Below, piece by piece: positions 29,636 through 48,783 of a stretch of DNA of 64,000 nt. Source of the DNA: Weeksellaceae bacterium. GTDB taxonomy: Bacteria; Bacteroidota; Bacteroidia; Flavobacteriales; Weeksellaceae. Made by a program: the position numbers and the translations under genes. The DNA lies in NCBI GenBank assembly GCA_041677705.1, contig JBAYPM010000005.1, positions 23,102-87,101 of the forward strand, in the 5' to 3' direction. Under the pieces are notes generated by a model. That model was not told the DNA's origin. It did no database searches and worked only from the letters and a program-made list of their open reading frames with translations. Positions within the stretch are counted from its first letter, which is position 1, and each line of letters opens with the position of its first letter.

Positions 29636-29820
29636 TTTAGGTTGAATTTTACCAAAATTAACTAAATTTGTAAGCTCCCCTTTTTCCAACAACTCAAAAC
29701 TAAACAAAATTATGCACTTCTATTCAATTTTTTAAACATCCACCTTATAGATATGAACGATATTGTAATGTTAGTACTTTACCCGCTATGCGCCAATGGG
29801 ATTTATAGGCTTTGGCTTTT

Positions 29821-30723: not shown

Positions 30724-30757
30724 TTTGGTTTGTTTTTTAAGGAATCTTTAATGTTAT

Positions 30758-30935
30758 TGCCATTAACGTTTTAGGTATTTTCGAAAACGGGAAAATCGAT
30801 CCGCCGCGGCGGATCGATTTTGCACCGAGCCATAATATGAAGTAAATTTAAGAAAAAACGAATGATATTCATTTTAGCGAGTCTCGGAGTATAAAGCATC
30901 AGCTTGCTATTGTGATAAACCCTCGTTATATGGCA
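30758..30935. repeat. attC-like folded spacer with TAAC...GTTA termini
   Basis: tgccattaac ... gttatatggca terminal inverted repeat with one extra base; internal perfect 30-bp palindrome aaaatcgatccgccgcggcggatcgatttt. Confidence 0.55.
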
Positions 30936-30991
30936 GGCTTTTCCGCTATTCTTTTTTCGTCTGCCTGTCAGCGTTGAGTTAGGTTTCCTCT

Positions 30992-32017
30992 TCATAGCTC
31001 ATTTATTTCCTTTTCAATCAAACGATATTTATCTTTGATATCTTCTCCTGAATAAAAGTCTAGCAAGTCTTTTTTAGTTAGTGTTCCTTGGCTTAAGAAA
31101 CGTTTTAAATATTCCTGATTAAACTCCATTAGAAGAATGGATTTTTCTAATTGTTTTAGAATTGCTTTGTTGTTATCAATGTTGTTTAGAACCAAAGATT
31201 TTATTGCCAGAATTTCATTAATATCTTTAATGATACGGTTTACTATCACCGCCAAAATATCTTTGTCTAACTCAACTTTCGTAGCATTTAAAGCAATGTC
31301 ACGAGCTAACATATACGCAATAGCCAAATTGCTGTAATCTCCTTTTTGAGAATTGATAATAGCAACGAATCCAATACTAGGGATATACCCCACGTTTTCA
31401 TAGTTCCTTAAGATTGAATTTTCTATTAATGAAATATCAAATACAATTATACTTACTTTACTATCTCTATTGGCTTGTGCTTCAATTAGCTGACTCCAAG
31501 CGGTATCTGTTTTTCGTGTAAAGACGTCTTTACTTTCAATATCTCCCAAACGAATACTTTTATCAAATTTGCACTCAATGGCAATTTTCAAATCGGGCGT
31601 TCCATTCACTTCACAAATAATATCACCCGTTTTATTTTTGGGTAAATTGCCTGTAGTATTACCTGTTAAAAACGCTCTGTCTTTTAATTTTTTGTCTGCA
31701 AAATATTGATTTAAAAATTCTGCAATTTCTTCCTCAGCCAATGTTCCTTTGATAGTTGACTTGTAGAAAAGTTCTTTCTTCATTTCAAAAATCATCTTCA
31801 AACTTTCGAGCTCTGTTCCCAACTCATTTGATGTTTTTGAAAGGAAAGATGAAATACGGTCTTCCATTAGGGCCAATACACCAATGTAAATGGCTCTTAG
31901 CAATTTTTCATCTCTTTCACTTGCAGGAAGATTATCAAAGTAATTAAAAACGATTTGATTTTCGATTTCAAATTCTTTGATTTCAATTCTTTTGAGTTGT
32001 TGGTTTATTTTAAGCAT
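30992..32017 (-). CDS. Coiled-coil plus PD-(D/E)XK (RmuC/restriction-endonuclease-like) nuclease
   Basis: KGTLAEEEI, KTGDII, IAIECK. Confidence 0.65.
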   Translation of the reverse strand: MLKINQQLKRIEIKEFEIENQIVFNYFDNLPASERDEKLLRAIYIGVLALMEDRISSFLSKTSNELGTELESLKMIFEMKKELFYKSTIKGTLAEEEIAEFLNQYFADKKLKDRAFLTGNTTGNLPKNKTGDIICEVNGTPDLKIAIECKFDKSIRLGDIESKDVFTRKTDTAWSQLIEAQANRDSKVSIIVFDISLIENSILRNYENVGYIPSIGFVAIINSQKGDYSNLAIAYMLARDIALNATKVELDKDILAVIVNRIIKDINEILAIKSLVLNNIDNNKAILKQLEKSILLMEFNQEYLKRFLSQGTLTKKDLLDFYSGEDIKDKYRLIEKEINEL

Positions 32018-32019
32018 TT

Positions 32020-32229
32020 CTAAACCTTTGAATATCTATAAACCCCTTTTATGTTTTGTGCCAAATACTTACCGTGAGAGTCAGCCTGCATTAGGTCTCT
32101 ATAAATATGTTGTGGTACGTCAAAATACTGGTAAATAGAATTGTTTAAAAATTCAATCTCCAAAGTTGATGATGCCTCATCATAGCCTATTGACGCTATG
32201 TTTGATGATGTTACTGATTTTCTTTCCAT
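32020..32229 (-). CDS. KTSC domain protein
   Basis: SSNIASIGYD...LEIEF...YQYFDVP..IY..LM.ADSHGKY. Confidence 0.92.
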   Translation of the reverse strand: MERKSVTSSNIASIGYDEASSTLEIEFLNNSIYQYFDVPQHIYRDLMQADSHGKYLAQNIKGVYRYSKV

Positions 32230-32237
32230 TTTTATAT

Positions 32238-34103
32238 TTATTTAATTATACGTTCAATTTTAGGGTTTTGAGCTCTCCAAGTTTCAACAAATTCTTCATA
32301 ATTTGGGTTTTCTTCCATTTTGTTACCCCATCCACCTGGATGCAGAGAGTTTTCAGATGCAATTTCATCAAAAATAATAGGGTCTTGACTGTCGGGGCGT
32401 CTATCTTTCGGTGGGGCTTTTATAAAAGTTCGCATTGGTAACTTAACGGCTTCACCTAAGATAATTGCTTCTCCTGTTTTTAGAATTGGTAGCATACTTG
32501 TAAGACCTTCAAGATTATCAGAAACAGCACCAGTTATATGTCCTCGGTCAGAAGAATTTGAAAGTCTTAGTGCAAAGAAAGTTCCACATTGTGAAAGTAT
32601 TGTAGAATTAATTTCCGAAGGCCTTTGACTAACTATCATAGCTCCAATACCGTACTTTCTTCCTTCCTTTACTATTTTTTGAACAATAGAGAGTGCACTT
32701 CCTTCGGAATTCAAATAATTATGCGCCTCTTCCATTAATAGTAATAAAGGTCTTTCTTTTCCACCTTGGGAAAGATTTCTTGCCCAAAATAGACCATCAT
32801 AAACTATTCTAAGCAAAACTCCTATTATAGTATTTAAAATTGTGATTGGAACGCCTGATAAGTCTAGAATTGTAATTGATTTATCACTCCCAACCCAACC
32901 TTTAATTAAAGTATCTAAATCTTCATCCGTTTTTCCGTCTTGCTTAGGCATCCAATTCCCTGGCTTAAATATGAAGTCATATCTTGGAATCCTTAATTTG
33001 GAACCTAATGAATGTAATTGTTGACTACTTCCTAAAGGCGATTCGTTTGGATGCTGAACTCTATCGCCATTAGCCTTGTTTGTATTGATTTTTTTAAAGA
33101 CAGGTGGTGTAGCAGTTTCTGGGTTTCCTTTTAACTCATTTCCATCTTTGTCTATTTCGTATGCTAAAGGCTTTCCATCTTTATCTGGATAAAATTTCCC
33201 TAACGTTTGAGTGTATAGATCAAACCATAAATGATTAATACTAAATGGGACTGGAGAGTCAACATTTATCGTTTCTTTATCAACCCCTTTAAGAGGATAT
33301 TTTTCGATAGTCTTAATTTTTTCTTGTAGAATTCTTTCGAGAATAGTATTTTGGTCTTTTTCGTTATTAAATTTCCCAAAACTTATTTCACATAATTCCT
33401 CAAAACTTAATGCCCAAAAAGGTAAATACAATTCTTTTTCTTTTCTGTCAACACTTTTGTCTGCATTTATTTTATAAATATTTGCTTTGTCTTTTAGTGC
33501 CTGACTGTACTCGCCGTGAATATCAAAAACCAAAATGCGGGATGAAGGATATTTTGTTGTATCAGATAGCGCATTTAATAGACTTGCTACTGTTGTTGAT
33601 TTTCCTGACCCTGTAGTGCCAACAACAGCAGAATGTCTTGTTATTAATTTGTTTACATCAACTAATGCTGGAATAGATTCGGCACCTGCTATATACCCAA
33701 CATTCACAAAATAAGGTTTGTCTGGTTGTCCGTATATTCTTTTTAAATCTTCCTCTGAAACTAAATGAACCTCGTCACTTATAGTTGGATATTGGGAAAT
33801 ACCTCTATGAAATTCACCTGATCTTTGTCCTTCACCAACTAATTGAATTGTAATCCACCTATTGCCATATGGTTGATTTGGAATTTGATTTTCAGGTACA
33901 GCACCTGCTCCAACTTGTGTAATAATGCCAAATAAATAATTGTAACCAATAGGGATTTTCACAAAACTTCCAATTTGTCCAATTCGATAACCTTCACCGT
34001 TAACATAAGTCAAACCTGATAGTGAATCATTAACCATTGCTACCCTTATAGTTGTCCCAGTTACATCTTGAACTGTTCCTAAATATGTAGAATTATTTTT
34101 CAT
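32238..34103 (-). CDS. herA: HerA/FtsK-family ATPase (HAS barrel + DUF87)
   Basis: N-terminal GQIGSFVKI barrel, Walker A GTTGSGKST, Walker B LMEEAH, KEGRKYG, SQRPSEI. Confidence 0.92.
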   Translation of the reverse strand: MKNNSTYLGTVQDVTGTTIRVAMVNDSLSGLTYVNGEGYRIGQIGSFVKIPIGYNYLFGIITQVGAGAVPENQIPNQPYGNRWITIQLVGEGQRSGEFHRGISQYPTISDEVHLVSEEDLKRIYGQPDKPYFVNVGYIAGAESIPALVDVNKLITRHSAVVGTTGSGKSTTVASLLNALSDTTKYPSSRILVFDIHGEYSQALKDKANIYKINADKSVDRKEKELYLPFWALSFEELCEISFGKFNNEKDQNTILERILQEKIKTIEKYPLKGVDKETINVDSPVPFSINHLWFDLYTQTLGKFYPDKDGKPLAYEIDKDGNELKGNPETATPPVFKKINTNKANGDRVQHPNESPLGSSQQLHSLGSKLRIPRYDFIFKPGNWMPKQDGKTDEDLDTLIKGWVGSDKSITILDLSGVPITILNTIIGVLLRIVYDGLFWARNLSQGGKERPLLLLMEEAHNYLNSEGSALSIVQKIVKEGRKYGIGAMIVSQRPSEINSTILSQCGTFFALRLSNSSDRGHITGAVSDNLEGLTSMLPILKTGEAIILGEAVKLPMRTFIKAPPKDRRPDSQDPIIFDEIASENSLHPGGWGNKMEENPNYEEFVETWRAQNPKIERIIK

Positions 34104-35313
34104 CTAATTTAGTTTGATTGTAACCGATTAATGCTTGAAGAAAATCTCCCAATATAGAAAAATCTCCTAGTTTTAAGAGATGCTTCTCTTCTGTATCTTC
34201 ATCGGATTTAATTTTTTGAATGCAATTGGCTAAGTTATCTTCATCTTCCATTTCAGATGGGGTTTTCCATTTAGCTCTTACTGTTCCTATTATTGCTTCA
34301 TCAAAAGACCATAAAGCAAGATTATTTCTGTTTAGTGCCAATTGCATAGCTTTTGGATAACGTTCAATTTTCTTTTCATCTTTTTCATAGGTTAAAGTGT
34401 CAAATAGTAAAGCAATAGCCATAGAGTTTGGATTAGCTTTTAACGCATTCAAGATAGTATCATTCAAATGTTCATCATTAAATGAATAACCAATTAATAC
34501 CATCAGCGAATTAGGTTGCCTTAGAAATTTATTAAGTTGGTCTATTAAAGCTAAATATGGCATTTTTCTACTTTGCTCATACTTTAAGTGAGAAGGATAT
34601 ATCAGAGAAGAATCTCCGCTTTCCTTTGTAGCTATTGATCTATAGACTTCTTTGCTCTCTTTTTGAAACCAATTTATAGATCCGTGTATCTTCCATAATC
34701 GCGTCCAATGCTTGGGTATCAAGTTGTCCTCTACTGCACGTAAGTCAAAAAAAGATTGTCTTGAGCCTACAAAACCATCAAAGTAGGGGATTGACAAGGC
34801 CTCAAAGGCTTCTTCTAGTAGTACGTCGTAATTAGTAGTAAAAACTTCAATGGGTTTTTCTCTATCAATTGAAATCCATTGTGCGAGTTTGTGATATGGC
34901 GTGTCATTATCAGGAAGATTTACCATAAGTTTTTCAACTATCTTCCTGCAAATATTCTTTTCGAGCTCTATCAAGTTTTCATTTGTAAATCCTCTAACAG
35001 AATTACCGATTGAAACTTCTTTCAATCCACGAAGAAAACTCAATATATCTTCAATATTATTACTATCCTTTTGAGAAAGAATTACTTCGTCAACGAGTCT
35101 GTCATAATCATTTTTTGTGTCTGTTTCTGACTTTAGTTCTTTGGTGACAAATTCGGTTAGTTTTGCGACATCAGGAATTAATGGCCATTTGCCTTCTGGC
35201 ATCTTTACAGCAAGTGGACAACCTGCCGAAATAAAAAATCCTAATGGTTTTTTGTCTTGAGATAATGTTTGCCTCAGAAACTTTATATGCTTTACGGGGT
35301 CGTGTGTAATCAT
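34093..35313 (-). CDS. SIR2_2-family sirtuin (predicted NADase of a SIR2-HerA defence system)
   Basis: SAGC, FTTNYD, KIHGSINW, IGYSFNDEH; overlaps the HerA start. Confidence 0.9.
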   Translation of the reverse strand: MITHDPVKHIKFLRQTLSQDKKPLGFFISAGCPLAVKMPEGKWPLIPDVAKLTEFVTKELKSETDTKNDYDRLVDEVILSQKDSNNIEDILSFLRGLKEVSIGNSVRGFTNENLIELEKNICRKIVEKLMVNLPDNDTPYHKLAQWISIDREKPIEVFTTNYDVLLEEAFEALSIPYFDGFVGSRQSFFDLRAVEDNLIPKHWTRLWKIHGSINWFQKESKEVYRSIATKESGDSSLIYPSHLKYEQSRKMPYLALIDQLNKFLRQPNSLMVLIGYSFNDEHLNDTILNALKANPNSMAIALLFDTLTYEKDEKKIERYPKAMQLALNRNNLALWSFDEAIIGTVRAKWKTPSEMEDEDNLANCIQKIKSDEDTEEKHLLKLGDFSILGDFLQALIGYNQTKLDEK

Positions 35314-35422
35314 ATTTTCAAACTATTTATTCCTATTTAACCTCTATTTCAATAACTTTCTCCAAATACTATCAGCTGGTCTTATTTCCCTAGTGAAACC
35401 GTATAAGAAGCCGAAACGTTAG

Positions 35423-37480
35423 TTACAGGGCTTTTAATTCTTCAAATTCTTGTGGAATACTCAATCCTTTTTTGTAATTTTCAATATTTGAATGATTTCT
35501 GTATTTTCCAATTAATGTATTTATCGTTATAGCTGTAAAAAGAAAAACAATTATTGAAAAGCTACCAGAAATTAGAATGTTTGTTTGTAGTGTTTTGAAG
35601 TATTCAATGGCGTCATTAATATTCCAATTTGAGTTAATCAAAAGATATAATATACCACCTATAAACAGTCCAATACCAAAAAAAAGCTCAATCCAACTTT
35701 TTCTTCTCCATTTTGATACCTCCTTCTTAATCCATTCATCTCTTAAAAGTTTTCGAGAGTAATTCTGTTCAATTAGTAGTTTGTTTTCAAGTTCTGATAC
35801 TTTTTTATTGCTCTCATTTCTTTCTTCCAAAACTTGACCAAATACTTTGATTTTGTTGTCATAATTTATCTTGGACTTTTCAAGTTCATCAGTTCGCAAT
35901 GCAATATCCTTAAAAACTTTTTCTAATTTTTTAATTCTACTCTCTTCAAGTCGTTTTTGTTTTTCAGCCTCTCCTTCAAGTCGTTTTACAAATTGTTCTT
36001 TGTCTTTTTCAGCAAGAATATTTAACTCCTCAATATCTTTTAATTGTTTATTTGTAATTCTTGTTGCAACTCTTACAATATCGGCATCACTTATAGCCTC
36101 CTTTGCATATTTATGAATATTATTATCTAACTCTCTTAAAATATTTGATTTGGGTAAATTTTTGTTTAGTGTTAATGATATTATTGAAGTTAAACCAATC
36201 TCTGCTAAATCTCCCCCTTCAATTTCTCTATTTGTTTGAGGATTACTTAACCATAAAATATTCAACAAATCGTCAGCTTTTATAGTTTCTGGCTGAAACC
36301 CCTCTTTTAAAAAGATATTATCTCCTTCAACAGAAGCTGAATTATTAACAAACCAAGCATTTACTTTTTCAAAATCCTTAATCCTTTTACCTCTTTTCTT
36401 TTTGATGTAAAGAATTGCAACTGCATCGTGTAATGCAGATTTTCTCGTGGTTCTAACCTGTTCGAAAATTTTAAATTCATCGGTAAATTTTGCCTCATTT
36501 TTTAATTTGTCTGTATTATACAATACACTTATACCAAATTCATGTATTGAACTTTCCAGATTGTCCGCAACGCGCTCTAAATCTGTTTTAGAAAAACCTT
36601 TTCTATCACAAGCGTTATACACGTCTTCTGGATTAACTTTTTTCTGTAAAAAAGATTTGTCAAAAAATGCGGCCTTTGTTTCTAAAAGATTTTTAGTTTC
36701 TTCTATTGTGTCTTTTAAAACATGGATTTTAAAGCCTTGCTGTTTACTAATTTTTACTAAAGTTCTACAAGTGTGAGTTGATTCAGGTGTGTTCAAGTCT
36801 AACAATGCAACAATAAAATTAGTATCCAATAATAGCTCTATTTCACTTTTCACACTGTCTGGATTGTACTCAATGTAGCCAGATATGATTGAGCCTAGAT
36901 AAATATTTTTAATTCTGTCGTAAATTGTGGGTATTCTTCTGAAGAAATTAATAAATTGAGCTTCTGCTGTATAGTCCTCGCCATTAATATGTTGATTATT
37001 GGATATGTATTTTGAAAGAGTGAATTTATTCTTCTCAATAAAATTGAAGATAGTATTTCCATTTTCGATTTCTAATTCAGATGTTTCGCAAAATTTTTTA
37101 AATAATTCTTCTAGTTCATTTATTTCATTTTCTTGATTTGCAATAATATCCTCAAAGTCGGTAAATGTATATTGATTAATACTAAAAGCACCATCTTTAT
37201 ATAGTATAAAATGCGTTGTTTCTTCTGTATTTACTTCCTTACAAATTTCTTCTAGGATTTTTTTCAAAACGGGAATTGGGAAGTCTAAAGAATACAGAGA
37301 GTCTGTTTTGCTTTTTATTTCTAAAATACTTTTTCCTTTAAAAATTCCTTCAATGTTCATCTTTGATAGGGCCCTCTTAACAAGAGGGATAAATATATCA
37401 ATTGGACCTTTTACTAATGTCCCAGTATTTCGAATATGAGCCAACAAGCCATAAGTTACTGCTCTTTCCTTATTATTCAT
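35423..37480 (-). CDS. Large protein: central PIN-like domain, coiled coil, two C-terminal TM helices
   Basis: LLLDTNFIVALL, DTIEE, ALHDA acidic motifs; charged heptad region; WIELFFGIGLFIGGILYLLI and ILISGSFSIIVFLFTAITI. Confidence 0.65.
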   Translation of the reverse strand: MNNKERAVTYGLLAHIRNTGTLVKGPIDIFIPLVKRALSKMNIEGIFKGKSILEIKSKTDSLYSLDFPIPVLKKILEEICKEVNTEETTHFILYKDGAFSINQYTFTDFEDIIANQENEINELEELFKKFCETSELEIENGNTIFNFIEKNKFTLSKYISNNQHINGEDYTAEAQFINFFRRIPTIYDRIKNIYLGSIISGYIEYNPDSVKSEIELLLDTNFIVALLDLNTPESTHTCRTLVKISKQQGFKIHVLKDTIEETKNLLETKAAFFDKSFLQKKVNPEDVYNACDRKGFSKTDLERVADNLESSIHEFGISVLYNTDKLKNEAKFTDEFKIFEQVRTTRKSALHDAVAILYIKKKRGKRIKDFEKVNAWFVNNSASVEGDNIFLKEGFQPETIKADDLLNILWLSNPQTNREIEGGDLAEIGLTSIISLTLNKNLPKSNILRELDNNIHKYAKEAISDADIVRVATRITNKQLKDIEELNILAEKDKEQFVKRLEGEAEKQKRLEESRIKKLEKVFKDIALRTDELEKSKINYDNKIKVFGQVLEERNESNKKVSELENKLLIEQNYSRKLLRDEWIKKEVSKWRRKSWIELFFGIGLFIGGILYLLINSNWNINDAIEYFKTLQTNILISGSFSIIVFLFTAITINTLIGKYRNHSNIENYKKGLSIPQEFEELKAL

Positions 37481-37604
37481 TATTTCTATGGTTCTGATTT
37501 TCAAGCTTTGCCTATTACTCCCAAATATCTAAAATATTCTCAAATTTCACAAAAAAATTCATAAATTAGACCCGTAAGATTCAATAATTTGTTTGACATA
37601 ATCT

Positions 37605-38075
37605 ATGACAACAACTTCCAAAATATTATATCTTACATTTTTCTTATTACCACTTCTTGCCTACTCGCAAGTCACGGCAAAAGTTGTTGGTATAAAAGAC
37701 GGAGATACTATTGTCGTACTTCTAAAAAATAAAACCCAACAAACCCTTCGATTAGCAGAAGTAGATTGCCCTGAAAATGGTCAAGCCTTTGCAAGAAACG
37801 CAAAACAGTTTACTTCAGATGCCGTTTTTAGAAAAGAAATAACATATATAGAAACAGATCGGGACAGGTGGGGACGCATAATCGCCAAGGTATATTACGA
37901 TGACAATTTATACCTCTCTGCGGAAATCATAAAAGCAGGTATGGGATGGTGGTATTATAGATATTCTGATGATGAAAGTTTAGGCGATTTAGAAAATGAT
38001 GCTAAAACAAATAACCGAGGTTTATGGCAAGACTCCAATGCAATTGCCCCATGGGAATTTAGGAAATTAAAATAA
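37605..38075 (+). CDS. Thermonuclease (SNase-like) with signal peptide
   Basis: IKDGDTI, RLAEVDCPE, DRWGRIIA, GLWQD..PWEFR. Confidence 0.92.
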   Translation: MTTTSKILYLTFFLLPLLAYSQVTAKVVGIKDGDTIVVLLKNKTQQTLRLAEVDCPENGQAFARNAKQFTSDAVFRKEITYIETDRDRWGRIIAKVYYDDNLYLSAEIIKAGMGWWYYRYSDDESLGDLENDAKTNNRGLWQDSNAIAPWEFRKLK

Positions 38076-38414
38076 TTTCATTTATTCTTTGTTTCATATC
38101 CACATAATATTTTTCCTTTTTACCTGTAAGTTTATTGTCCAGTTTATAACATTCTTCAACAATTTGAAGAATTTCCCTCTTCTCTTTCACGACTAATAAC
38201 TCACAAAAATTTAGGTTTAGAAATTGTATAACTTCTATTAGCTTATTCCATCCACTAAAATGTCAGCTCTTTCTATACGACCAACTGATGTGTTTGTAGA
38301 GCCAATCCTTAAAGCAAGATCAAATTGGGAAATACCCAATTTTAAACGAGCAAGCTTAATTCTATGCCCAAGATAAATATTAACCTTCTTAAATTCTTTC
38401 TCGCTGAATATCAT
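38059..38414 (-). pseudogene. Frameshifted XRE-family HTH regulator
   Basis: MIFSEKEFKK...LGHRIKLARLKLGISQFDLALRIGSTNTSVGRIERA, then continues in another frame (GWNKLIEVIQFLNLNFCEL...) after about 38263; not in ORF track. Confidence 0.65.
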
Positions 38415-38423
38415 ACTTCTATA

Positions 38424-38675
38424 TTAGTAATTAAATAAATCCCTCAAAGAAACATTTAGGACTTTAGATAGTGCCAATAGGGTTTCAAATGAAGGATTTG
38501 TCTCTCCTCTCTCAATCTCCCCAATTGTTTTTTTAGACAAATATTCACTTCTATCACTTAATTCTTGTTGTGATATTGACCTATTATTATATTCAGTGCT
38601 TTTGATTTTCTTTCTTAATTTAAGAACATGCTTACCAAGCTTCTCTTTCTCAATTTCAAAATCTATTTTATTCAT
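38424..38675 (-). CDS. XRE-family HTH regulator
   Basis: LGKHVLKLR...SQQELS...TIGEIERGETNPSFETLLALSKVL; start placed at MNKIDF. Confidence 0.88.
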   Translation of the reverse strand: MNKIDFEIEKEKLGKHVLKLRKKIKSTEYNNRSISQQELSDRSEYLSKKTIGEIERGETNPSFETLLALSKVLNVSLRDLFNY

Positions 38676-38741
38676 TTTATAAATTTCCTTGTTAAAGAGG
38701 AATTTTTTGGTAACGTATAGGGTACTATAAATAATTTTATT

Positions 38742-38749
38742 TATATTTG
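38742..38749 (+). promoter_or_regulatory. -7 promoter box pointing into ncRNA-like copy 1
   Basis: tatatttg (TAnnTTTG), divergent from the XRE gene. Confidence 0.55.
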
Positions 38750-38802
38750 CCTCGAATAACATATTGCAATTCTTCCAATAGGAATAAAATATTGAAGCAA
38801 TT

Positions 38803-38951
38803 GCTTGGAATCTCGCCCGAAAACTGGTAATTTTCAAAGAAACGAGACCAATAAGCAAGATGCTCACGTCCCGGGCGTGGCCTTCTTATCGTTCCTTAGG
38901 CGTACCAGTGCCTCGATTCGGTAAGTTGAGTTCACGCCCTTTTTCTTGCGT
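38803..38951 (+). ncRNA. Candidate structured ncRNA, copy 1
   Basis: Non-coding, strongly similar to 39374..39526; complementary blocks ACTGGTA/TACCAGT and GGGCGTG/CACGCCC; ends in a T run. Confidence 0.6.
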
Positions 38952-38979
38952 AGTAACTCACAGCCATATCATTCTTAAT

Positions 38980-39219
38980 CTAATACTTCTTTATATCGAA
39001 TTCAAAATCAAACAATTGTTTTGGTTGAACATTTAATGCTTGTGCAAATTTCAACAAAGTACTTATTGTGAGATTTATTTTCCCCTGTTCATATCTGCTA
39101 ATTTCTGAATTCTCAATCCCGGTAAGAAAACTTAAGTCATTTTGTGTTTGCTTATTCTTTTCCCGAAATTCTGCAATCTTGTTACCAATTCCCTCTAAAA
39201 AATCGCTTTTAATATCCAT
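38980..39219 (-). CDS. XRE-family HTH regulator
   Basis: IGNKIAEFR...TQNDLSFLTGIENSEISRYEQGKINLTISTLLKFAQAL. Confidence 0.9.
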   Translation of the reverse strand: MDIKSDFLEGIGNKIAEFREKNKQTQNDLSFLTGIENSEISRYEQGKINLTISTLLKFAQALNVQPKQLFDFEFDIKKY

Positions 39220-39300
39220 AGTAAGCTTTGTTTTAAAAGCAATTTCCCTTTATTTTGATAAAATTTTATTGGGATATATCACAATATTGAAATAAATTCT

Positions 39301-39308
39301 TATATTTG
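39301..39308 (+). promoter_or_regulatory. -7 promoter box pointing into ncRNA-like copy 2
   Basis: tatatttg, same arrangement as in copy 1. Confidence 0.55.
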
Positions 39309-39373
39309 TTCAATAGTTACATCAATAGATGTAATTTAGCGATTCTTCGATTAGGAAAATATTAGAAGCTTTC

Positions 39374-39526
39374 GCTTAGAATCTCGCCTTTGGAAACTGG
39401 TAATTTAAATCGGAACGAGAGGATAAGCAGAAGGCTCACGACCGCGGGCGTGGGCTTTCTTACTGTTCCTCGGTATACCAGTACCTCAAAGGCGGTAAGT
39501 TGAGTTCACGCCCTTTTTTCTTGCGT
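39374..39526 (+). ncRNA. Candidate structured ncRNA, copy 2
   Basis: Homologous to 38803..38951 with compensatory changes in the outer helix. Confidence 0.6.
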
Positions 39527-39918
39527 ATTCTTCAACTGATTTTCTAGGCATCTTCTCATTCTTCCGGAGATTGCAACAATTAACTTGTAATAAATCAAAA
39601 AAAAAGTGCCTATGTAAAAAAACATCTGAAACAACTGCAGTAAGAGAAAAATTATTCTTTCACAAACCTGTCCAATAAAGCGTGTGTTAATTATTTGGTC
39701 CCTCTGCTTTGGCTCAAGAAGTCAGGGTAAGCACATCCAAAGCCGACGCAGAGGGTTTTTCAAAAGAAAGAAAAAGGGGCAAAAACACCTTTGCCCGAAC
39801 GATCCACCGCTGCTTACTGTCCCACCATTACATAAAAATGCCCTCTGCAACTGACTTGACAAACAATGCAGAGAGCACGGATTTTAAAATAAAGTATCAC
39901 TAAAACCCATTCAAAATT

Positions 39919-42900
39919 ATGAAAAAAATTTTATCATTAGGGAAGAAGTTTGTGCCGGGCTGTACCTTTTTACTCGTCCTCATAGCCTTAAACGCCTTCG
40001 CGCCGGCACATAACTCTCCCATAAAATCAAACCTCAATACACAAATCGACCAGGACGACTTCATCACCGGCACAGTCTCCGATTTGGGAGGGCCAATACC
40101 CGGTGTCCTGATTACCGTCAAAAACACAAATATTTCTGCTGTAACAGATGAAAACGGTCATTACACCATTTCTGCCCTACCCGGAGATATCCTCATATTC
40201 TCATACGAAGGCTACGAAACCATTGAACTGGAAGTAGGCATTGACCCAATCATTGACGTTGAACTCTATGAAGCCGTAGCCCTCGAAGAAGCCGTGATCA
40301 ATGCAGGATACTATCAGGTTAAAGACCGTGAACGTACCGGAAGTATCTCCCGAATAACAGCAGAAGAAATTGAAAACCAACCGGTCGGAAATGTACTTGC
40401 TGCCATACAGGGAAGAATGCCGGGCGTCAATATAATTCAAAATTCAGGAACTCCCGGCGGTGGATTTGAAGTACAAATCAGGGGAATAAACAGCTTGCGA
40501 AGAGAAGGCAATTATCCATTATACATAATCGACGGTGTGCCTGTCAATGCTTCCACTCCGTCTTTTTTTGGCAGCCGGGCACTTCCTTACGCAGAAATCA
40601 ACCCACTCAATTCAATAAACCCAAACGATATTGAAAGTATTGAAGTCTTGAAAGATGCAGACGCTACCGCCATATATGGTTCCCGTGGAGCCAATGGTGT
40701 GATTCTGATTAATACAAAGAAAGCAAAATCAGACAGAACGAATTTCAGTTTTCAGTCAAGTTACTCGATTAGTCAGCTTGGAAAGAAAATGAAAATGATG
40801 AATACAGACCAATATATTGAAATGAGAAAGTATGCTTTCCAAAATGACGGTATTTCGGAATATCCTGCCAATGCATTTGATTTAAACGGAGCATGGAATT
40901 CCGATCGTTATACAAATTGGCAGGATCAAATTTTAGGTAAAACAGCAGCCGGTTTAAATTTGCAATTCACTTTAAGCGGCGGAAAGGATAAAACACATTA
41001 CCTCCTGAGTGGAAGTCATAACGAACAACAAACTGTATTTTCAAACAAATTTCTGTACAAATACAATAATCTTGTGGGAAATTTCAGTCACAAATCCGAT
41101 GACAGCAGACTGGAATTAAATGTCTCTGGATTGTTCTCAGCACAGCAAAATGATATAATCAACGGAGACCTGACCAATAGTGCGCTTACACTCAGTCCAA
41201 ATGCTCCAAAATTATACGATGAAAACCATAATCTCAATTGGGAAAATAACACATTTGAAAACCCGTTGGCAATTTTTGAAAGCACTTATGATAATGAAAG
41301 CATTGATCTCAATTCAAATCTAAACCTCAGATATGAATTATTTCCTTCATTCTTTCTGAAATTCAACGGAGGTATAAATTATCAGGAATTTGAAGAGACC
41401 GTACTGCGCCCCAGCACTATGTACAACCCGTCAATGGGAGTTACGCCTGCAAGTTCCAGTATTACAAGAGGAAACAGACGTTACCTCTCTTATCTGTTGG
41501 AACCCCAGCTGAATTACAAAACGACCTTTAAAAATCATGAGTTAGATATATTAATTGGAGGAACCTTTCAACAAAGTAATTCATCCTATTTGGGGCTGTA
41601 TGCATCAGGATTTGAGACAAACTCTCTTATCACAAACTTAGCGGCAGCAAATAATCTTTCAGTAACAAATGATGATTTATCACAATATAATTACGCCGCA
41701 TTATTCGGCCGAATTAACTATCAATTCCGGAATAAATACATTTTAAATCTGACCGGTAGAAGAGATGGCTCAAGCAGATTCGGCCCCAATAACAGATTTG
41801 CAAACTTCGGGGCTGTTGGCATCGCCTGGATTTTTTCACAGGAGAATTTATTAAAAGACCTGTCCTGGTTGAGTTTCGGAAAATTAAGAGGGAGTTTTGG
41901 TATTACCGGAAATGACCTGATCGGTGACTATCAATATCTGGATACCTATGGGATTAGCAGTAATCAATATGGCGGAAATTCAGGATTATATCCTTCAAGG
42001 CTTTACAATCCGGATTTCAGCTGGGAAAAAACACAAAAAACAGAATTTGCTGTCGAACTTGGGTTTATAAAAAACAGATTAAACTTATTTGTAAACAGGT
42101 ATGAAAATAAATCAGGAAATCAACTGGTTGGAATCCCTTTGCCGGGAACAACCGGTTTCAGTTCTGTGCAGGCAAATCTGGATGCTACAGTTAAAAATAC
42201 CGGATGGGAATTTGTGCTGACCGCAAAACCCATATCAGGCAAAAGCTTTTTGTGGGAAACAAATTTCAATATAAGTTTCCCAAAAAATAAACTTGTTTCA
42301 TTCCCAAACTTAGAAGGCTCCACATATACCAACAAATATGTAATTGGGCAACCGGTTACTATTGTAAAAGTTTACAATTTCGAAGGTATTGACCCTGAAA
42401 CGGGTCTCTACTCCTTTACAGATTATAATAATGACGGCAACCTCTCTGCGTCGGATGATGCTCAGGCAATCCGAAATCTCGGTATTCGCTATACCGGAGG
42501 ATGGAGCAATCAGTTCTCTTATCGAAATTGGAAATTATCTTTCCTCTTTCAATTTGTGAAACAATTGCAGTGGAATTACAACAATATCATGAAAATGCCG
42601 GGTACTTTTTACAATCAGCCGGTTGAGGTTCTCAATGTTTGGTCAGCTTCCAATCCAAAAGGACAATATATGCCTTATTCAACCGGGATGAATCCTGAAA
42701 TATCTCAAAGACACCTGATGTTTATGAATAGTACGGCCGCTATTAGCGATGCTTCATTTATCCGTTTGAAAAATATTCAGATAAATTATCAAATACCGCT
42801 TAAACAATCAGAAATGAGGATAAATGTATTTGTTCAGGGTCAAAACCTTTTGACTTTTACTGATTATTTCGGACTTGATCCGGAATTTCGTCTGGGTGGT

Positions 42901-42951
42901 TATCTCCCACCTCTAAAAACTTATGCTTTTGGATTCCAATTAACATTCTAA
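39919..42951 (+). CDS. SusC/RagA family TonB-linked outer membrane protein
   Basis: CarboxypepD-like N-domain, IEVLKDADATAIYGSRGANGVILINTK signature, C-terminal F. Confidence 0.95.
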   Translation: MKKILSLGKKFVPGCTFLLVLIALNAFAPAHNSPIKSNLNTQIDQDDFITGTVSDLGGPIPGVLITVKNTNISAVTDENGHYTISALPGDILIFSYEGYETIELEVGIDPIIDVELYEAVALEEAVINAGYYQVKDRERTGSISRITAEEIENQPVGNVLAAIQGRMPGVNIIQNSGTPGGGFEVQIRGINSLRREGNYPLYIIDGVPVNASTPSFFGSRALPYAEINPLNSINPNDIESIEVLKDADATAIYGSRGANGVILINTKKAKSDRTNFSFQSSYSISQLGKKMKMMNTDQYIEMRKYAFQNDGISEYPANAFDLNGAWNSDRYTNWQDQILGKTAAGLNLQFTLSGGKDKTHYLLSGSHNEQQTVFSNKFLYKYNNLVGNFSHKSDDSRLELNVSGLFSAQQNDIINGDLTNSALTLSPNAPKLYDENHNLNWENNTFENPLAIFESTYDNESIDLNSNLNLRYELFPSFFLKFNGGINYQEFEETVLRPSTMYNPSMGVTPASSSITRGNRRYLSYLLEPQLNYKTTFKNHELDILIGGTFQQSNSSYLGLYASGFETNSLITNLAAANNLSVTNDDLSQYNYAALFGRINYQFRNKYILNLTGRRDGSSRFGPNNRFANFGAVGIAWIFSQENLLKDLSWLSFGKLRGSFGITGNDLIGDYQYLDTYGISSNQYGGNSGLYPSRLYNPDFSWEKTQKTEFAVELGFIKNRLNLFVNRYENKSGNQLVGIPLPGTTGFSSVQANLDATVKNTGWEFVLTAKPISGKSFLWETNFNISFPKNKLVSFPNLEGSTYTNKYVIGQPVTIVKVYNFEGIDPETGLYSFTDYNNDGNLSASDDAQAIRNLGIRYTGGWSNQFSYRNWKLSFLFQFVKQLQWNYNNIMKMPGTFYNQPVEVLNVWSASNPKGQYMPYSTGMNPEISQRHLMFMNSTAAISDASFIRLKNIQINYQIPLKQSEMRINVFVQGQNLLTFTDYFGLDPEFRLGGYLPPLKTYAFGFQLTF

Positions 42952-42961
42952 AACAAAAAAA

Positions 42962-44335
42962 ATGAAAAAAATATTCTTTATTTTATTGAGCATATTTATA
43001 GCAATTGCTGCAATACTCACATCTTGTGAAGACCTAATCGAAACAGATTACCCAACCAATCAGATTGGCACCGCACAGGTTTTTGACAATGTTCATACAG
43101 CCAATTCAGCTCTTAATGATATATACGCTGAATTAAGGACTCAATCATTCTTTTCCGGAGTTGACACAGGTACAGGTATTTTATTGGGAATGTACACAGA
43201 TGATATAGATTGTTATTACAACGATCAAAACGGATTCAGGGATATATATCTTAACATGCAGCAGGCATCAAACTCGGTTGTGGAACTTTCTTGGGACACT
43301 GCTTATAAAATTATCTATGCTGCAAATTCCATCATTCTTGGTGTTGAAAATTCAACAGGGTTGAATGAAACAGAAAAAGATCAAATTAAAGGAGAAGCTT
43401 TATTGATCCGCACTGTTTTCTATTTTTATTTACAACAATTATTTGGCGGCATACCTTATACAACCAGTATTGATTATGAATACAATCGTACACTTTCAAA
43501 AACCAATGAAAATGAACTGCTTACAATACTTTCAAATGATTTGGTTGAAGCCTCCCAACTTCTGAACGATGATTATCGACATCCGGAACGTATTTATGTC
43601 AACAAAAAAGTTGCTGAGTTGATGTTGGCAAAAGTTTACCTGACACAAGGTAATTATTCCCTCGCTGAACAAACCATAATGTCCGTTCTTCAATCTCCGT
43701 TGTATCAGTTTCAGCCTGATTTGAATGAAGTTTTCCATAACACCGGAAATCATATTTTATGGCAGCTGCAACCTATGGTTGCATTATTTCCAACTTGGGA
43801 ATCGCTGTTTTTTTACTTTACGGATGCACCGCCGCATGCATTTGCATTAACTGATAATTTAGTCAGTTCGTTTTCAGAAAATGATTTAAGAAAAACAGCA
43901 TGGATTGAACCTGTCACATTCAATAACCAAGTTTGGTACAGACCAAACAAATACAAAAACATTGATGTTAATCCGGATGAATACTCTGTGGTTATAAGAA
44001 TTGAAGAAGCCTATTTCATTATGGCTGAGGCCTTGGCTCGGCAAAATAGGATCAGTGAAGCTTTGCCTTATATAAATATGACTCGCGAGAGAGCAGGCTT
44101 ACAGCCGTTAGGCAGTGTTTCTCAGGAAGTATTTATAACAGAATTACTCAATGAAAGAAGAAGAGAATTCTTTACAGAATTCGGACACAGATTTATTGAT
44201 TTAAAAAGATTGGAAAAACTTCACATTTTATCAGGTGTAAAACCCAATTGGGTTGAAAGTAAAAAAGTATGGCCAATTCCACAAAAGGAATTACTGCTAA
44301 ATCCAAATCTTAATCCCCAAAATGAAGGTTATTAA
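42962..44335 (+). CDS. SusD/RagB family lipoprotein
   Basis: Lipobox ILTSC, GEALLIR, ERRREFFTEFGHRFIDLKR, WPIP. Confidence 0.95.
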   Translation: MKKIFFILLSIFIAIAAILTSCEDLIETDYPTNQIGTAQVFDNVHTANSALNDIYAELRTQSFFSGVDTGTGILLGMYTDDIDCYYNDQNGFRDIYLNMQQASNSVVELSWDTAYKIIYAANSIILGVENSTGLNETEKDQIKGEALLIRTVFYFYLQQLFGGIPYTTSIDYEYNRTLSKTNENELLTILSNDLVEASQLLNDDYRHPERIYVNKKVAELMLAKVYLTQGNYSLAEQTIMSVLQSPLYQFQPDLNEVFHNTGNHILWQLQPMVALFPTWESLFFYFTDAPPHAFALTDNLVSSFSENDLRKTAWIEPVTFNNQVWYRPNKYKNIDVNPDEYSVVIRIEEAYFIMAEALARQNRISEALPYINMTRERAGLQPLGSVSQEVFITELLNERRREFFTEFGHRFIDLKRLEKLHILSGVKPNWVESKKVWPIPQKELLLNPNLNPQNEGY

Positions 44336-46811
44336 TCTTATCATCTTTACTCTTGGCCTGGCAATTTTGTCAGGTCAGGAGTCAAAAGATAGAAATACTA
44401 AAATATTTAAAAGTTTATCCGATAAGACATACCTGCCAATCAATCTTCAAATGAGCGAAAATGGTAAATGGATAAGTTTCTTGAAGTCTTACGATTCAAA
44501 TAGGGATACTTTGGTTATTTTAAAAAGCACAAAACCAAATTCTTTTCAATTCTTTAGAACTGGTTTCAATTCAGTATTATTCAGCAAAAATGACTATGTG
44601 CTTTTAAACAATGAATCTGAAACAGAGTTTCTCAACCTGAATTCCGGAAACGCCTTAATATTTCAGAATGTTTGGAGAAGTGCGTTCCTCAACCAAAAAG
44701 AGCAATTTATATTGCATTACAACGACAACAATCAGAATAAATTAGAATTGCGTGATTTTAATGGGAATATCATAAATAGCGAACATCATATTAAAAATTT
44801 CTTTTTATCTGATTTCGAAAATCTTTACCTTATATCTGAAAGTGGCTATGGAATTTCAGAAATCATAACTTTCAACAACAAGGAAAAAACTGTCTGGTAC
44901 TCTTCTTCCAACCCTATTCAGGATCTTTATATAGATCCAGGCGAAAAAAGTTTAATTATATACTCTGAAAACAATCAGGACAAAAGTAAATTAATTACAT
45001 TTTATGAGCTCCAAACCAAAACAGCCTATCATTTAAACAAGCTGCTGGAATTTCAGCCTCTCTGGGGAAACAGTAAAACAATCATCGAAGGGGATTGCTA
45101 TTTTATCAGACTCTTTAAAAAAACTGAAACTGCCGGTGATTTAGTTGATTTATGGTACGGAAGCGATAACCGGCTCGAGAAAAAGTTCGAACAGCCCATA
45201 GAAGAAATAGATTATTTGTGGTTCCCTAAAAAACAAAAGATTCAAAGAATTGGAACAGATGAATTAAGCAAAAATGCTCCACTAAATAAGGATGGTTTAT
45301 TTTTAAGTTTTAACCCTTATTTACTCGAAGATTACACAAAGGAAAAAGCAGATATACTGCTGTATATATTTAACAGCACCACAAATCAAATTGAGCCATT
45401 AGACACCCTGACTCCCGAGATTCATATTTCTCCTGATGGAAATTTTCTTCTTTCACCAAAAAATAAGGAATGGCATTTATTTGATCTGAAACGAAAGAAA
45501 AGAGTAACAATAAACAACCCGAATCTAAAAAGACCGGTTTTTACTTCAGATGGAAAATCTGTGTATTTTGAGGGAGTTGGTGGCCTGTGGGAATACCTTC
45601 TTTACAAAAATAAGCTTCAAAATATATTAGATTTTAGAGAATATGAAACCAGTATCTTAAACTACAAAATGAATATTGTATTGGATGGCTACAATTTCTT
45701 TCAAAACTCAATAGATCCGGATACCCCCCTTATTATAAAATTATTTGATGAGGAAAAAAATACATCTGCCATTGTCAGGTTTTACAAACAAAATGCTTCG
45801 TATATCGTCTATCCGACTGACAATCATATTCGGTCTGTAACCTATGATTTGAATTATCAGAATTTTGCTTATTGGGAAGAAAATTTTAACTCTCCTCCTG
45901 TTTTGTTCAATTTGCCTTTTAACAAAAAGAAATTTCCAATATATTTTACCAATAAAAATGACAGTCAAATAAAGAATGTAAAACAGCGAGTCATTTCCTA
46001 TCAGGATTCTTTTGGAAATGATTTAAAAGGGATATTGTATTTCCCCATAAACTACGAACCCAATAAACAGTTTCCGCTTGTAACACATATCTACGAAAAG
46101 CAAAATCATTTAAGAAATCGATATTTAAACTTTGATTACAAAACAGGAGTGGGTTTCAACATAAGGTCTTTGATTGAAAAAGATTATTTCGTATTCCTGC
46201 CGGACATTCAGATAAATCAAAACGGGCCCGGACAATCTGCATTGGATTGTATTGGTAATGCAATTAAAGCATTAAGAAAGGAATCACTTTCGGTGAGTAA
46301 AATGGCTCTGATAGGACATTCCTTTGGCGGCTACACAACAAATTACATCGCGACTCAGTCAGATTTCTTTGCAACTTATATCTCAGGTGCGGGAAAGAGT
46401 GATTTAATCCATAGTTATTACTCCTTTAATTACAATTTTTTGACCCCGGATTACAGACGGATAGAATCAAGCATTTACAACATGAAATTCTCATTTTCAG
46501 ATAATAAAGAATTATATTATATCAATAATCCCATTTATTATGCTGACTCGGTAAAAGCACCCGTTTTATTATGGTCTGGGGAGAATGATGAGAATGTTCC
46601 CAAAAGCGAAAGTATTGGTTTTTACCTTGCGTTAAAAAGAAATAATAAGAAAGTTATTACTTTATTTTATAGAAATGAAATACACAGTCTGCAACGCAAA
46701 GAATCTCAAATTGATCTTATGCTGCGTATTTGGGATTGGTTGGATTATTTTTTGAAAAATGCCAATGACATAGAATGGATAGACAATGAAATAAAAAAGG
46801 GTGCTCTTTAA
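44322..46811 (+). CDS. S9 (prolyl oligopeptidase/DPP-like) peptidase with N-terminal propeller
   Basis: GHSFGG nucleophile, DENV, EIH triad residues; signal peptide. Confidence 0.9.
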   Translation: MKVINLIIFTLGLAILSGQESKDRNTKIFKSLSDKTYLPINLQMSENGKWISFLKSYDSNRDTLVILKSTKPNSFQFFRTGFNSVLFSKNDYVLLNNESETEFLNLNSGNALIFQNVWRSAFLNQKEQFILHYNDNNQNKLELRDFNGNIINSEHHIKNFFLSDFENLYLISESGYGISEIITFNNKEKTVWYSSSNPIQDLYIDPGEKSLIIYSENNQDKSKLITFYELQTKTAYHLNKLLEFQPLWGNSKTIIEGDCYFIRLFKKTETAGDLVDLWYGSDNRLEKKFEQPIEEIDYLWFPKKQKIQRIGTDELSKNAPLNKDGLFLSFNPYLLEDYTKEKADILLYIFNSTTNQIEPLDTLTPEIHISPDGNFLLSPKNKEWHLFDLKRKKRVTINNPNLKRPVFTSDGKSVYFEGVGGLWEYLLYKNKLQNILDFREYETSILNYKMNIVLDGYNFFQNSIDPDTPLIIKLFDEEKNTSAIVRFYKQNASYIVYPTDNHIRSVTYDLNYQNFAYWEENFNSPPVLFNLPFNKKKFPIYFTNKNDSQIKNVKQRVISYQDSFGNDLKGILYFPINYEPNKQFPLVTHIYEKQNHLRNRYLNFDYKTGVGFNIRSLIEKDYFVFLPDIQINQNGPGQSALDCIGNAIKALRKESLSVSKMALIGHSFGGYTTNYIATQSDFFATYISGAGKSDLIHSYYSFNYNFLTPDYRRIESSIYNMKFSFSDNKELYYINNPIYYADSVKAPVLLWSGENDENVPKSESIGFYLALKRNNKKVITLFYRNEIHSLQRKESQIDLMLRIWDWLDYFLKNANDIEWIDNEIKKGAL

Positions 46812-47101: not shown

Positions 47102-47134
47102 AATATCAAAATTTAAATAGAACCTACTCTTTTT

Positions 47135-48655: not shown

Positions 48656-48783
48656 ATCAAACCAAACTGTTTGTACAAAATTAAATACCCCCAAACAATA
48701 AATTATTTACCAAATCCGGACAATAATTGACTGAATCTGAACCGGTTTTGCCCCGGTCAGCAAATATTAACCAATGGTCGGAC

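Follow-up and report, generated by a model that had tools for sequence, protein, structure and literature searches.

RNA-guided transcription (RGT) by nuclease-dead Cas12f (dCas12f) together with sigmaE has been described by Hoffmann et al. (Nature 2026, PMC13472631), whose text reports a plentiful non-coding RNA (ncRNA) between a helix-turn-helix (HTH) gene, hth, and rpoE, with rpoE and dcas12f downstream lowly expressed. A similar ncRNA is described beside an hth homologue upstream of a susCD target, and targets matching the guide RNA (gRNA) are said to 'precisely overlap' the ncRNAs on the same strand, with a Chryseobacterium gleum example carrying seven such loci. According to the same text, the ncRNA is abundant in Fta, where the dCas12f target is susCD plus a peptidase; its 5' end falls at the guide-like sequence; and guided transcription starts 45-48 bp after the target-adjacent motif (TAM). 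The genomes searched were those encoding dCas12f, and the role and promoter of the ncRNA are stated to be unknown, its role being an open question of RGT systems. Here we examined a 64,000-nt stretch of a Weeksellaceae bacterium genome (assembly GCA_041677705.1, contig JBAYPM010000005.1, positions 23,102 to 87,101; hereafter the window, numbered from its first letter), in which two structured RNA elements accompany XRE-type HTH genes ahead of a susC-susD-S9 peptidase operon. These RNAs are very probably the hth-associated ncRNA of dCas12f-sigmaE RGT regulons. The RNA family is already described, and the window copies are orphan, partly decayed members of it.

Identification of the window RNAs with the hth-associated ncRNA

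Copy 1 occupies 38789-38953 on the plus strand, from the P0 hairpin to the U-tract, and the conserved core of copy 2 lies at 39360-39528 on the same strand. The two are 79% identical across 148 nt (E 3e-25). Both match covariance model R1, built from 75 distinct family copies, with scores of 122 bits for copy 1 (E 1e-21, full length 1-168) and 147 bits for copy 2 (E 9e-27), the E-values of this model being rough. T runs end the elements at 38940-38944 and 39514-39519. An original prediction, made from the letters of the window alone, had proposed two homologous structured non-coding elements on the plus strand ending in T runs, and this holds; the conserved RNA begins further 5' than it had assumed, at P0 (38794 and 39365). 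The RNA is not of a novel class, given the match to the hth-associated ncRNA as the text of PMC13472631 describes it.

The family was assigned because a sigma-factor gene paired with a gene for a protein without Pfam match, the susCD link and the HTH gene match the published RGT system. One covariance model and one alignment take in both the window copies and RNAs from named Chryseobacterium, Cloacibacterium, Elizabethkingia and Epilithonimonas loci, where they lie about 1 kb upstream of dcas12f. In 30 relatives a gRNA follows dcas12f, composed of scaffold GAGGGTGCTTGTACACCC...TATACAAC, then guide GGCGTGGGCTCTTT, then a T run. The ncRNA contains GGCGTGGGCTC(T/A)CTT in the same sense as this guide, and the family consensus G|GCGTGGGCTCTCTT matches the guides. 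Pairing of guide GCGTGGGCTCTTTT with target GCGTGGGCTCACTT gives mismatches at guide positions 11-12, as published in a companion structure paper, which reports native mismatches at these positions. In one genome (G080), the same variant is seen in a gRNA guide (GGCGTGA), in the ncRNA site (GGCGTGA) and, as TCACGCC, in the 3' strand of the terminator described below. In addition, the operon after copy 2, susC-susD-S9 peptidase, is of the same type as the Fta target.

In the window, the guide-like, dCas12f target-like site of copy 1 (38874-38888, plus strand) consists of TAM G38874 followed by GCGTGGCCTTCTTA, which deviates from the consensus; copy 2 (TAM G39447 plus 39448-39461, plus strand) retains G|GCGTGGGCTTTCTT. 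The ncRNA and the dCas12f gRNA (85-105 nt, after dcas12f) have about 11-14 nt (GGCGUGGGCUC...) in common in the same sense, and both end in a U run. In contrast, the gRNA scaffold is absent from the ncRNA, which the published text does not report as dCas12f-bound. We ruled out that the ncRNA itself is the gRNA of the downstream Cas12f-like gene, the gRNA being found after dcas12f with an unrelated scaffold. A conserved TTTGCGATACTTCAA box upstream of the core was likewise rejected as the dCas12f target, real guides matching GGCGTGGGCTC inside the RNA, and so was a second RNA-guided target 46 bp upstream, which no guide matches. Separately, loci L055 and L072 and one more gRNA array carry extra tandem gRNAs (guides TGAGCGGTTTTCTT, GGGGCGGTTTTCTT and AGAGCGCCTTTCTT), which must have other targets because these guides do not match the ncRNA.

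The window modules resemble the published loci in the divergent small HTH gene, which at copy 2 has a candidate inverted-repeat operator, the position upstream of susCD(-peptidase) or between hth and rpoE-dcas12f, the same-strand gRNA-matching target with a 5'-G TAM, and the occurrence in Flavobacteriales including Chryseobacterium. They differ in that the window genome has no rpoE-dcas12f beyond a remnant, in that two modules stand in tandem, and in that the conserved RNA extends to the TAnnTTTG boxes and has support for two alternative folds, the comparison being with the published model as its text describes it.

A covariance search of 38600-39700 against Rfam 15, which the original prediction had proposed, returned no match at gathering score; up to E 10 the best hits had E-values of 3.1-9.4, at chance level, and the ribozyme families of Rfam 15 showed no similarity even there. 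Neither a known aptamer in Rfam nor a leader peptide was found for the ncRNA. A protein-coding element was rejected as well: the short plus-strand open reading frames (ORFs) lie in different frames in the two copies, in agreement with the earlier view that no ORF is shared, and no conserved reading frame exists among close relatives, where 1-nt indels are scattered. Antisense coding met the same end: some subfamilies do have stop-free frames, but 1-nt indels interrupt them and the frame shifts from one subfamily to another. A small ORF is thus an unlikely explanation of the element.

Covariation in two alternative folds

Fold A consists of the P0 hairpin and a long rod, P1-P2-P3-P4-P5, with conserved internal loops and a P5 loop of variable sequence. 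Its helices lie at 38794-38806 (P0), 38817-38821/38917-38921 (P1), 38823-38829/38903-38909 (P2) and 38862-38868/38876-38882 (P5) in copy 1, and at 39365-39377 (P0), 39385-39392/39487-39494 (P1) and 39396-39402/39476-39482 (P2) in copy 2. Among the 75 distinct members, 99% of cells are paired in fold A versus 27-46% in slid controls, and 12 pairs are compensatory. Across 37 diverse Bacteroidota members, 96-97% of cells are paired and 29-30 of the 35 pairs are compensatory, a level reached by none of 500 shuffles; this phylum-level alignment was fitted to fold A, a bias that favours fold A.

Fold B is made of two parts. In the 3' part, hairpin T runs from the TAM G to the U-tract, GGCGUGGGCUCUCUUAUC pairing with GGUAAGUUGAGUUCCACGCC. 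In the 5' part, the conserved GCUUAG-AAUCUCG, unpaired in fold A, pairs with CGAGA-n-GAUAAGC. On an alignment that was not fitted to it, fold B has 87% of cells paired versus 40-51% in slid controls, with 16 of 29 pairs compensatory (0 of 500 shuffles reached this), and all five pairs of its AUCUC:GAGAU helix covary. The predicted long terminator hairpin T spans 38873-38944 in copy 1, where 38873-38890 (GGGCGTGGCCTTCTTATC) pairs with 38920-38939 (GGTAAGTTGAGTTCACGCCC) before the U-tract at 38940-38944, and 39446-39519 in copy 2, where 39446-39463 pairs with 39494-39513 before the U-tract at 39514-39519. Folded in isolation, it reaches -26.3 kcal/mol (z -4.0) in copy 1 and -32.3 kcal/mol (z -5.3) in copy 2; the z-scores of the copies themselves against shuffles are -2.5 and -3.8, respectively. 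A U-rich tract follows the 3' tail in nearly all family members.

The segment GGCGUGGGCUCUCUUAUC is shared by P4-P5 and the T stem. Folds A and B are mutually exclusive because T takes the 3' strands of P4 and P5, and because the 5' hairpin of fold B takes the P4 5' strand and the P0 3' strand. This bears on the helices named in the original prediction, all of which lie at the positions it gave in both copies: ACTGGTA/TACCAGT (38823-38829/38903-38909 and 39396-39402/39476-39482), GGGCGTG/CACGCCC (38873-38879/38933-38939 and 39446-39452/39507-39513), and an outer helix that reads CCGAA/TTCGG in copy 1 versus CGCCTTTG/CAAAGGCG in copy 2. The covariation claimed for them is real, as the 30 compensatory pairs of 35 among the 37 Bacteroidota members show. 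The crossing GGCGUGG:CCACGCC helix, which lies outside the covariance model, is paired in 92-96% of cells, with G-C to A-U double changes. Of the pseudoknot that had been proposed, both crossing helices are therefore real and conserved, but they more likely represent alternative states than coexisting ones.

By constrained folding, fold B is ahead of fold A in 66 of the 75 members, with a mean difference of -4.8 kcal/mol, and in both window copies it is ahead by about 14-17 kcal/mol. The 5' hairpin of fold B would enclose the 5' strands of P1-P3 without a linker. The conserved 5' leader also points to a further alternative pairing, of CUUCA with UGAAG of P0, which was excluded from the counts. 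The covariation supports two mutually exclusive folds, in an attenuator-like design.

Upstream of the 5' end given in the published text, the conserved RNA continues for about 80-130 nt and reaches the TAnnTTTG boxes. Since P1-P4 pair this upstream half with the interior of the published RNA and covary, the two must belong to one transcript. The conserved covarying RNA is about twice the length implied by the published description, its overlap with the published model being judged from the text. The published 5' end coincides with the base of hairpin T, and we infer that the abundant species reported there is the stable terminator hairpin left after the 5' part of a longer leader has been degraded or cut. 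An internal promoter behind the 5' end at GGCGTGG was rejected, as no conserved TAnnTTTG box lies at the right distance.

Position of the predicted guided start relative to the putative terminator

We took the first G of GGCGTGG as the TAM (5'-G TAM) and measured distances from it. P1 ends, on its 3' side, between +43 and +48 (mode +44) in each of the 75 family members and between +44 and +49 in 34 of the 37 diverse members, and the T 3' strand begins at +58 to +71. In the window, the predicted guided start (TAM+45 to +48) falls at 38919-38922 in copy 1, inside the T loop, and at 39492-39495 in copy 2, between the T strands. The predicted guided transcript would begin at about GGUAAG and would include the T 3' strand while excluding the 5' strand. 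Folded in isolation, such 5' ends give -4 to -5 kcal/mol with z near 0, that is, no significant structure. From this spacing, guided transcripts would be expected to bypass the terminator.

Since the terminator repeats the guide-matching site in inverted orientation, a TAM and seed are present on the opposite strand too: on the minus strand at 38933-38939 and 39507-39513, G+GCGTGG provides a TAM with a 6-7-nt seed match facing hth. This match is probably too short for guided transcription; it might allow dCas12f binding in genomes with the system.

Occurrence of the RNA without dCas12f

A BLAST search with a 151-nt query found the element in 67 of 201 Weeksellaceae genomes, often in 2-5 copies, with named loci in Chryseobacterium, Cloacibacterium, Elizabethkingia, Epilithonimonas, Kaistella and others. 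Model R1 gave full-length matches in 45 of 401 Bacteroidota genomes, belonging to 31 of 179 genera. In the 201-genome sample, 37 genomes encode full dCas12f and 32 have both, so that the ncRNA occurs without dCas12f in 35 of the 67 ncRNA-positive genomes, counts that depend on BLAST and HMMER sensitivity within one family. The gRNA is also lacking in 33 of 34 tested genomes with the ncRNA but without dCas12f, both positive controls having matched. The guide-like segment is equally conserved in genomes without dCas12f. Because the RNA is conserved in genomes that lack dCas12f, it has a function independent of dCas12f, and this function is probably the control of the SusCD-peptidase uptake operon. 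Given that the search described in the published text was limited to dCas12f-encoding genomes, the frequent occurrence of the ncRNA without the RNA-guided machinery appears to be a new point.

The window genome belongs to this group. A tblastn search found no full dCas12f in it, only a 30-aa C-terminal remnant, and a sigmaE with C-terminal extension was not found in this genome either. The remnant of a deleted rpoE-dcas12f locus lies outside the window (contig C46:1288-1501): the last 30 codons of dcas12f (…IQNWNFYELEAKIRYKAEKAGIELIVDKN*) remain, followed by one gRNA-like gene (nhmmer E 2e-21) with guide GGAGTGGGCTCTTG, whose seed is changed. With the rpoE-dcas12f operon deleted from this genome, the window modules are orphans. 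A genome of the same genus, G149, has the same kind of dcas12f remnant.

A proposed leader with an alternative-fold terminator and its alternatives

A cis-acting leader with an alternative-fold terminator is, in our view, the best overall explanation and a somewhat probable one. A small XRE/HTH repressor would face a divergent Bacteroidetes-type promoter with a palindromic operator, and from this promoter a leader RNA of about 190-210 nt would act in cis ahead of the susC-susD-S9 peptidase operon. In fold A, the rod (P0, P1-P5) would leave the 3' tail GGUAAGUUGAGUUCCACGCC single-stranded and allow read-through. In fold B, the 5' hairpin (GCUUAG-AAUCUCG with CGAGA-GAUAAGC) and the hairpin of GGCGUGGGCUCUCUUAUC with the 3' tail before the U-tract would form an intrinsic terminator. 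Transcripts from the promoter would mostly stop, fold B being the more stable in most cases, and leave an abundant small RNA and an insulated operon. The default terminator would thus shield susCD-peptidase, and elsewhere rpoE-dcas12f, from the HTH-controlled promoter. The abundant ncRNA and low rpoE and dcas12f expression described in PMC13472631 are consistent with such a default.

The complete chain, from a default-on terminator through read-through by the rod to a bypass by dCas12f-sigmaE, is more tentative, and we would put it rather below even. Here the terminator 5' strand would serve as the DNA landing site of dCas12f gRNAs (5'-G TAM plus GCGTGGGCTC...). With the guided start 45-48 bp past the TAM, just beyond P1 and between the terminator strands, guided transcripts would lack the 5' half of the terminator and run into the operon. 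The proposal gives a bench-testable model, a bistable leader whose terminator is bypassed since the guided start lies between its strands. If true, it would explain how these operons are held silent in Bacteroidota while remaining privately inducible, and would add a new widespread class of cis-regulatory RNA in a phylum whose RNA regulation is poorly charted. What is added to the published description is this structural and mechanistic hypothesis and the frequent occurrence of the RNA without RNA-guided machinery; the window case itself is an ordinary family member.

The leader resembles attenuators and riboswitch platforms in that GGCGUGGGCUCUCUUAUC pairs either upstream (P4-P5) or downstream (T) before a U-tract, in its operon-leader position, in the covariation of both folds, and in fold energies within a few kcal/mol of each other. 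It differs from them in having no known ligand, leader peptide, tRNA or binding protein, an unusually long terminator loop, a further leader of 330-500 nt, and an RNA-guided promoter inside the terminator.

Several observations weigh against the leader model. Fold B rests largely on conserved sequence: its columns are still 84% paired after shuffling, so that apart from the AUCUC:GAGAU helix and the lower T stem it covaries modestly. The terminator stem has a loop of about 30-55 nt, and a simple terminator scan gives no call. The constant TAM-to-P1 spacing could follow from the conserved structure alone. A second long hairpin followed by TTTTT stands in the susC leader (39700-39760, plus strand; CCCTCTGC...GCAGAGGG; -25 kcal/mol, z -2.9), and because of it bypassing the first terminator may be insufficient. 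In addition, the text of PMC13472631 describes HTH and ncRNA as dispensable for RGT in E. coli reporters, and its authors favour a negative regulator with unknown mode of action.

A possible but doubtful alternative gives the RNA an autonomous role as a riboswitch-like regulator in cis that predates dCas12f and is more widely distributed, with an effector stabilising the P1-P5 rod against the terminator. Candidate effectors would be a metabolite connected with the uptake of peptides or nutrients, or else a protein, for instance the HTH. The rod would open the susCD-peptidase operon, elsewhere rpoE-dcas12f, and dCas12f-sigmaE would have evolved secondarily, landing on the terminator 5' strand so that transcription starts within the terminator; what RNA-seq shows as the 'ncRNA' would be the leftover terminator hairpin.

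It is unlikely that the RNA acts in trans as a negative regulator, as the authors of PMC13472631 hypothesise in their text, whether as an anti-guide sponge or by sequestering dCas12f-sigmaE-RNA polymerase in the manner of an anti-sigma factor or 6S RNA. In the sponge version, the 3' tail (UUGAGUUCCACGCC) could pair with the gRNA guide seed (GGCGUGGGCUC), the two being complementary over about 8-12 nt by construction, and the conserved internal loops of the rod could bind protein; the reported abundance in Fta would also suit such a role. However, the tail is buried in the T stem in the stable fold, and half of the RNA-bearing genomes have no dCas12f or gRNA, with the RNA equally conserved there. 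Moreover, susC, rpoE or another gene in the same orientation follows the RNA closely in nearly every case, as is typical of cis elements, and the published text reports no ncRNA enrichment with dCas12f and no effect of the ncRNA on target binding or activation in E. coli. With 6S RNA (including Rfam 6S-Flavo) the ncRNA has in common a rod-like shape with internal loops, abundance, a length of about 150-200 nt and a link to a sigma factor. Unlike 6S RNA, a single housekeeping gene, it is multi-copy and locus-linked, and it has neither an Rfam match nor a large central bubble.

Self-cleavage or specific processing, with a functional 3' product, is very unlikely. The 5' end given in the published text, at the guide-like sequence, would lie in the apical P5 loop before GGCGUGG in the rod fold, and the covariation shows that the upstream half is transcribed together with the rest. 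Yet trimming back to a very stable hairpin would account for this 5' end with no need of catalysis, the P5 loop varies in sequence, and the ribozyme named among the options in the original prediction finds no similarity in Rfam 15, even at E up to 10.

It is highly improbable that the element is a DNA feature, a dCas12f landing pad or a recombination hotspot at an island border, with incidental RNA structure. A guide-matching site is embedded in it, the defence cargo upstream of hth is variable and hth genes are swapped between loci, but only selection on a folded single strand explains 30 of 35 compensatory pairs across the phylum, conservation is equal in genomes without dCas12f, and the published text reports an abundant transcript. 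Equally improbable is an XRE-controlled small RNA or antitoxin-like RNA, as had first been suggested, belonging to the adjacent defence island: the element does adjoin a SIR2-HerA island and is paired with XRE genes, but the genes upstream differ among genomes while the downstream partners are constant (susC or rpoE-dcas12f), orthologues in the same genus precede the same susC gene, and there is neither an adjacent toxin gene nor the tandem repeat array of a type III toxin-antitoxin system, the units lying about 570 bp apart with an HTH gene each.

Organization of the window locus

Each of the two hth-ncRNA units, spaced by about 570 bp, has a separate XRE/Cro-C1-type HTH gene on the minus strand. 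The first, hth1 (38424-38675, ATG at 38675, 83 aa; Pfam HTH_3 1.3e-13 and HTH_26), is divergent from copy 1. The second, hth2 (38980-39219, 79 aa; Pfam HTH_26 2.9e-12, HTH_3 2.1e-11), is convergent with copy 1 and divergent from copy 2, giving the order copy 1, hth2, copy 2. These coordinates and Pfam matches confirm the minus-strand XRE genes placed back-to-back with TATATTTG boxes in the original prediction. Copy 2 lies about 400 nt upstream of the operon, in sense orientation to it. The operon (39919-46811, plus strand) encodes a SusC-like TonB-dependent transporter (Pfam Plug and CarbopepD_reg_2), a SusD-like protein (SusD_RagB) and an S9 peptidase (Peptidase_S9). On the other side the SIR2-HerA island (27224-38075), which follows a tRNA at 27058-27129, adjoins the module. 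The element, earlier placed at the edge of a defence island, does not belong to it functionally; it is the leader or boundary element of the downstream operon.

At each copy a distal TATATTTG box, of the Bacteroidetes -7 type, was read on the plus strand (38742-38749 for copy 1, kept at the same place in 31 loci, and 39301-39308 for copy 2). TAnnTTTG is the Bacteroidetes -7 consensus. Most loci of the family have two TAnnTTTG boxes, a distal TATATTTG box adjoining the palindromic operator and a proximal box abutting a conserved CGAT(A/T)CTTCA. As their spacing varies from 9 to more than 50 nt across loci, they are two separate boxes. In the window both distal boxes are intact and both proximal ones degenerate (ACATATTG in copy 1); in copy 2 the distal box is followed by a 5' hairpin at 39315-39336 and then by the degenerate proximal box TAATTTAG (39332-39339). 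A -7/-33 promoter architecture is cited in the text of PMC13472631. A scan for sigma-70 promoters and simple terminators gave nothing useful, being ill-suited to Bacteroidetes promoters and long-loop terminators. Of 14 leaders examined for a separate canonical promoter between the ncRNA and susC, 2 contain TAnnTTTG; with about 0.3 expected by chance per locus, this is not informative.

The pairing of the RNA with a divergent XRE gene holds, and a candidate operator can be read at the RNA promoter. This palindrome, TATTGGGATATATCACAATA (39267-39286), was found by repeat search with 92% complementarity; it is separated from the hth2 start codon by 47 bp and precedes the distal -7 box by about 15 bp. 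Copy 1 has a weak inverted repeat only, overlapping the -7 box. Relatives carry locus-specific palindromes at the same place as that of copy 2, and inverted repeats at most 50 bp from hth genes are described in the text of PMC13472631.

The genome (2.7 Mb) has just these two ncRNA copies. The XRE proteins had been said to diverge while the RNA fold was kept, and indeed hth1 and hth2 are only 29% identical in protein sequence. The tandem duplication proposed with this is not supported: because of this low identity, and because copy 2 is no nearer to copy 1 than are the orthologous RNAs of other species, the units are not a recent tandem duplication. With the single RNA that precedes the same susC gene in two same-genus genomes, copy 1 has the P1 3' strand in common and copy 2 the 3' flank; both copies end in ...CACGCCCTTTTT(T)CTTGCGTA and diverge beyond. 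These sequences favour a reading in which recombination within the conserved 3' tail joined two diverged hth-RNA modules. Copy 1 gives the impression of some decay: P5 contains a C.C mismatch and P3 an A.C mismatch, the proximal box is missing, and the model score is the lower of the two.

In most of 31 related loci a divergent small HTH gene lies upstream of the ncRNA, with a locus-specific palindrome and TTATATTTG box between the two; an hth ORF was not called in two same-genus loci, L011 and L012. Three downstream contexts were found, all on the same strand as the RNA. The first is a SusC-like gene at about +450 to +620, with a further leader of 330-500 nt between ncRNA and susC. The second is a gene for a 271-aa ECF sigma factor (Pfam Sigma70_r2/r4) bearing an additional HTH at its C-terminus; a gene for a protein of about 365 aa without Pfam match comes next. 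The third, in loci L016, L017 and L029 of genomes without dCas12f, encodes a 137-174-aa protein without Pfam match (…VIYHFHQCMQSFVQAGYLMALKEKK…YLHLTKMLDAAYLILERR) starting about 220-340 nt past the RNA.

Genes upstream of hth-ncRNA vary by genome and are often defence-like, for instance a Cas9 N-terminus (L013), an AAA/OLD-like ATPase (L018) and a Dam-like methylase (L020), with L036 also among the variable loci. For variable islands, the conserved ncRNA/susC border may act as a hotspot, and recombination seems to exchange hth genes between loci. In the window, a truncated 58-aa XRE-like ORF (38238-38414, minus strand) with a partial HTH_3 match (profile positions 1-32 of 55) lies immediately 3' of hth1. 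No alignment between it and hth1 was obtained, and it may be a relic of an earlier hth exchange.

The susC leader (39529-39918, about 400 nt) holds further inverted repeats besides the 39700-39760 hairpin, a similar hairpin being seen in L011 and L012. The susC leaders of other genera have conserved blocks of their own, for example CAATGGG-GTGTACAAC-CCATTGCGGCTTT...CACGGGA...TTCATATTAAAT, which points to leader elements beyond those described so far; downstream of the ncRNA, regulation is thus more complex than our model. Beyond the operon, a DUF805b RNA motif (Rfam RF02914; 39.7 bits, above gathering score) lies at 47121-47158 on the minus strand, just upstream of the gene at 47135-48694.

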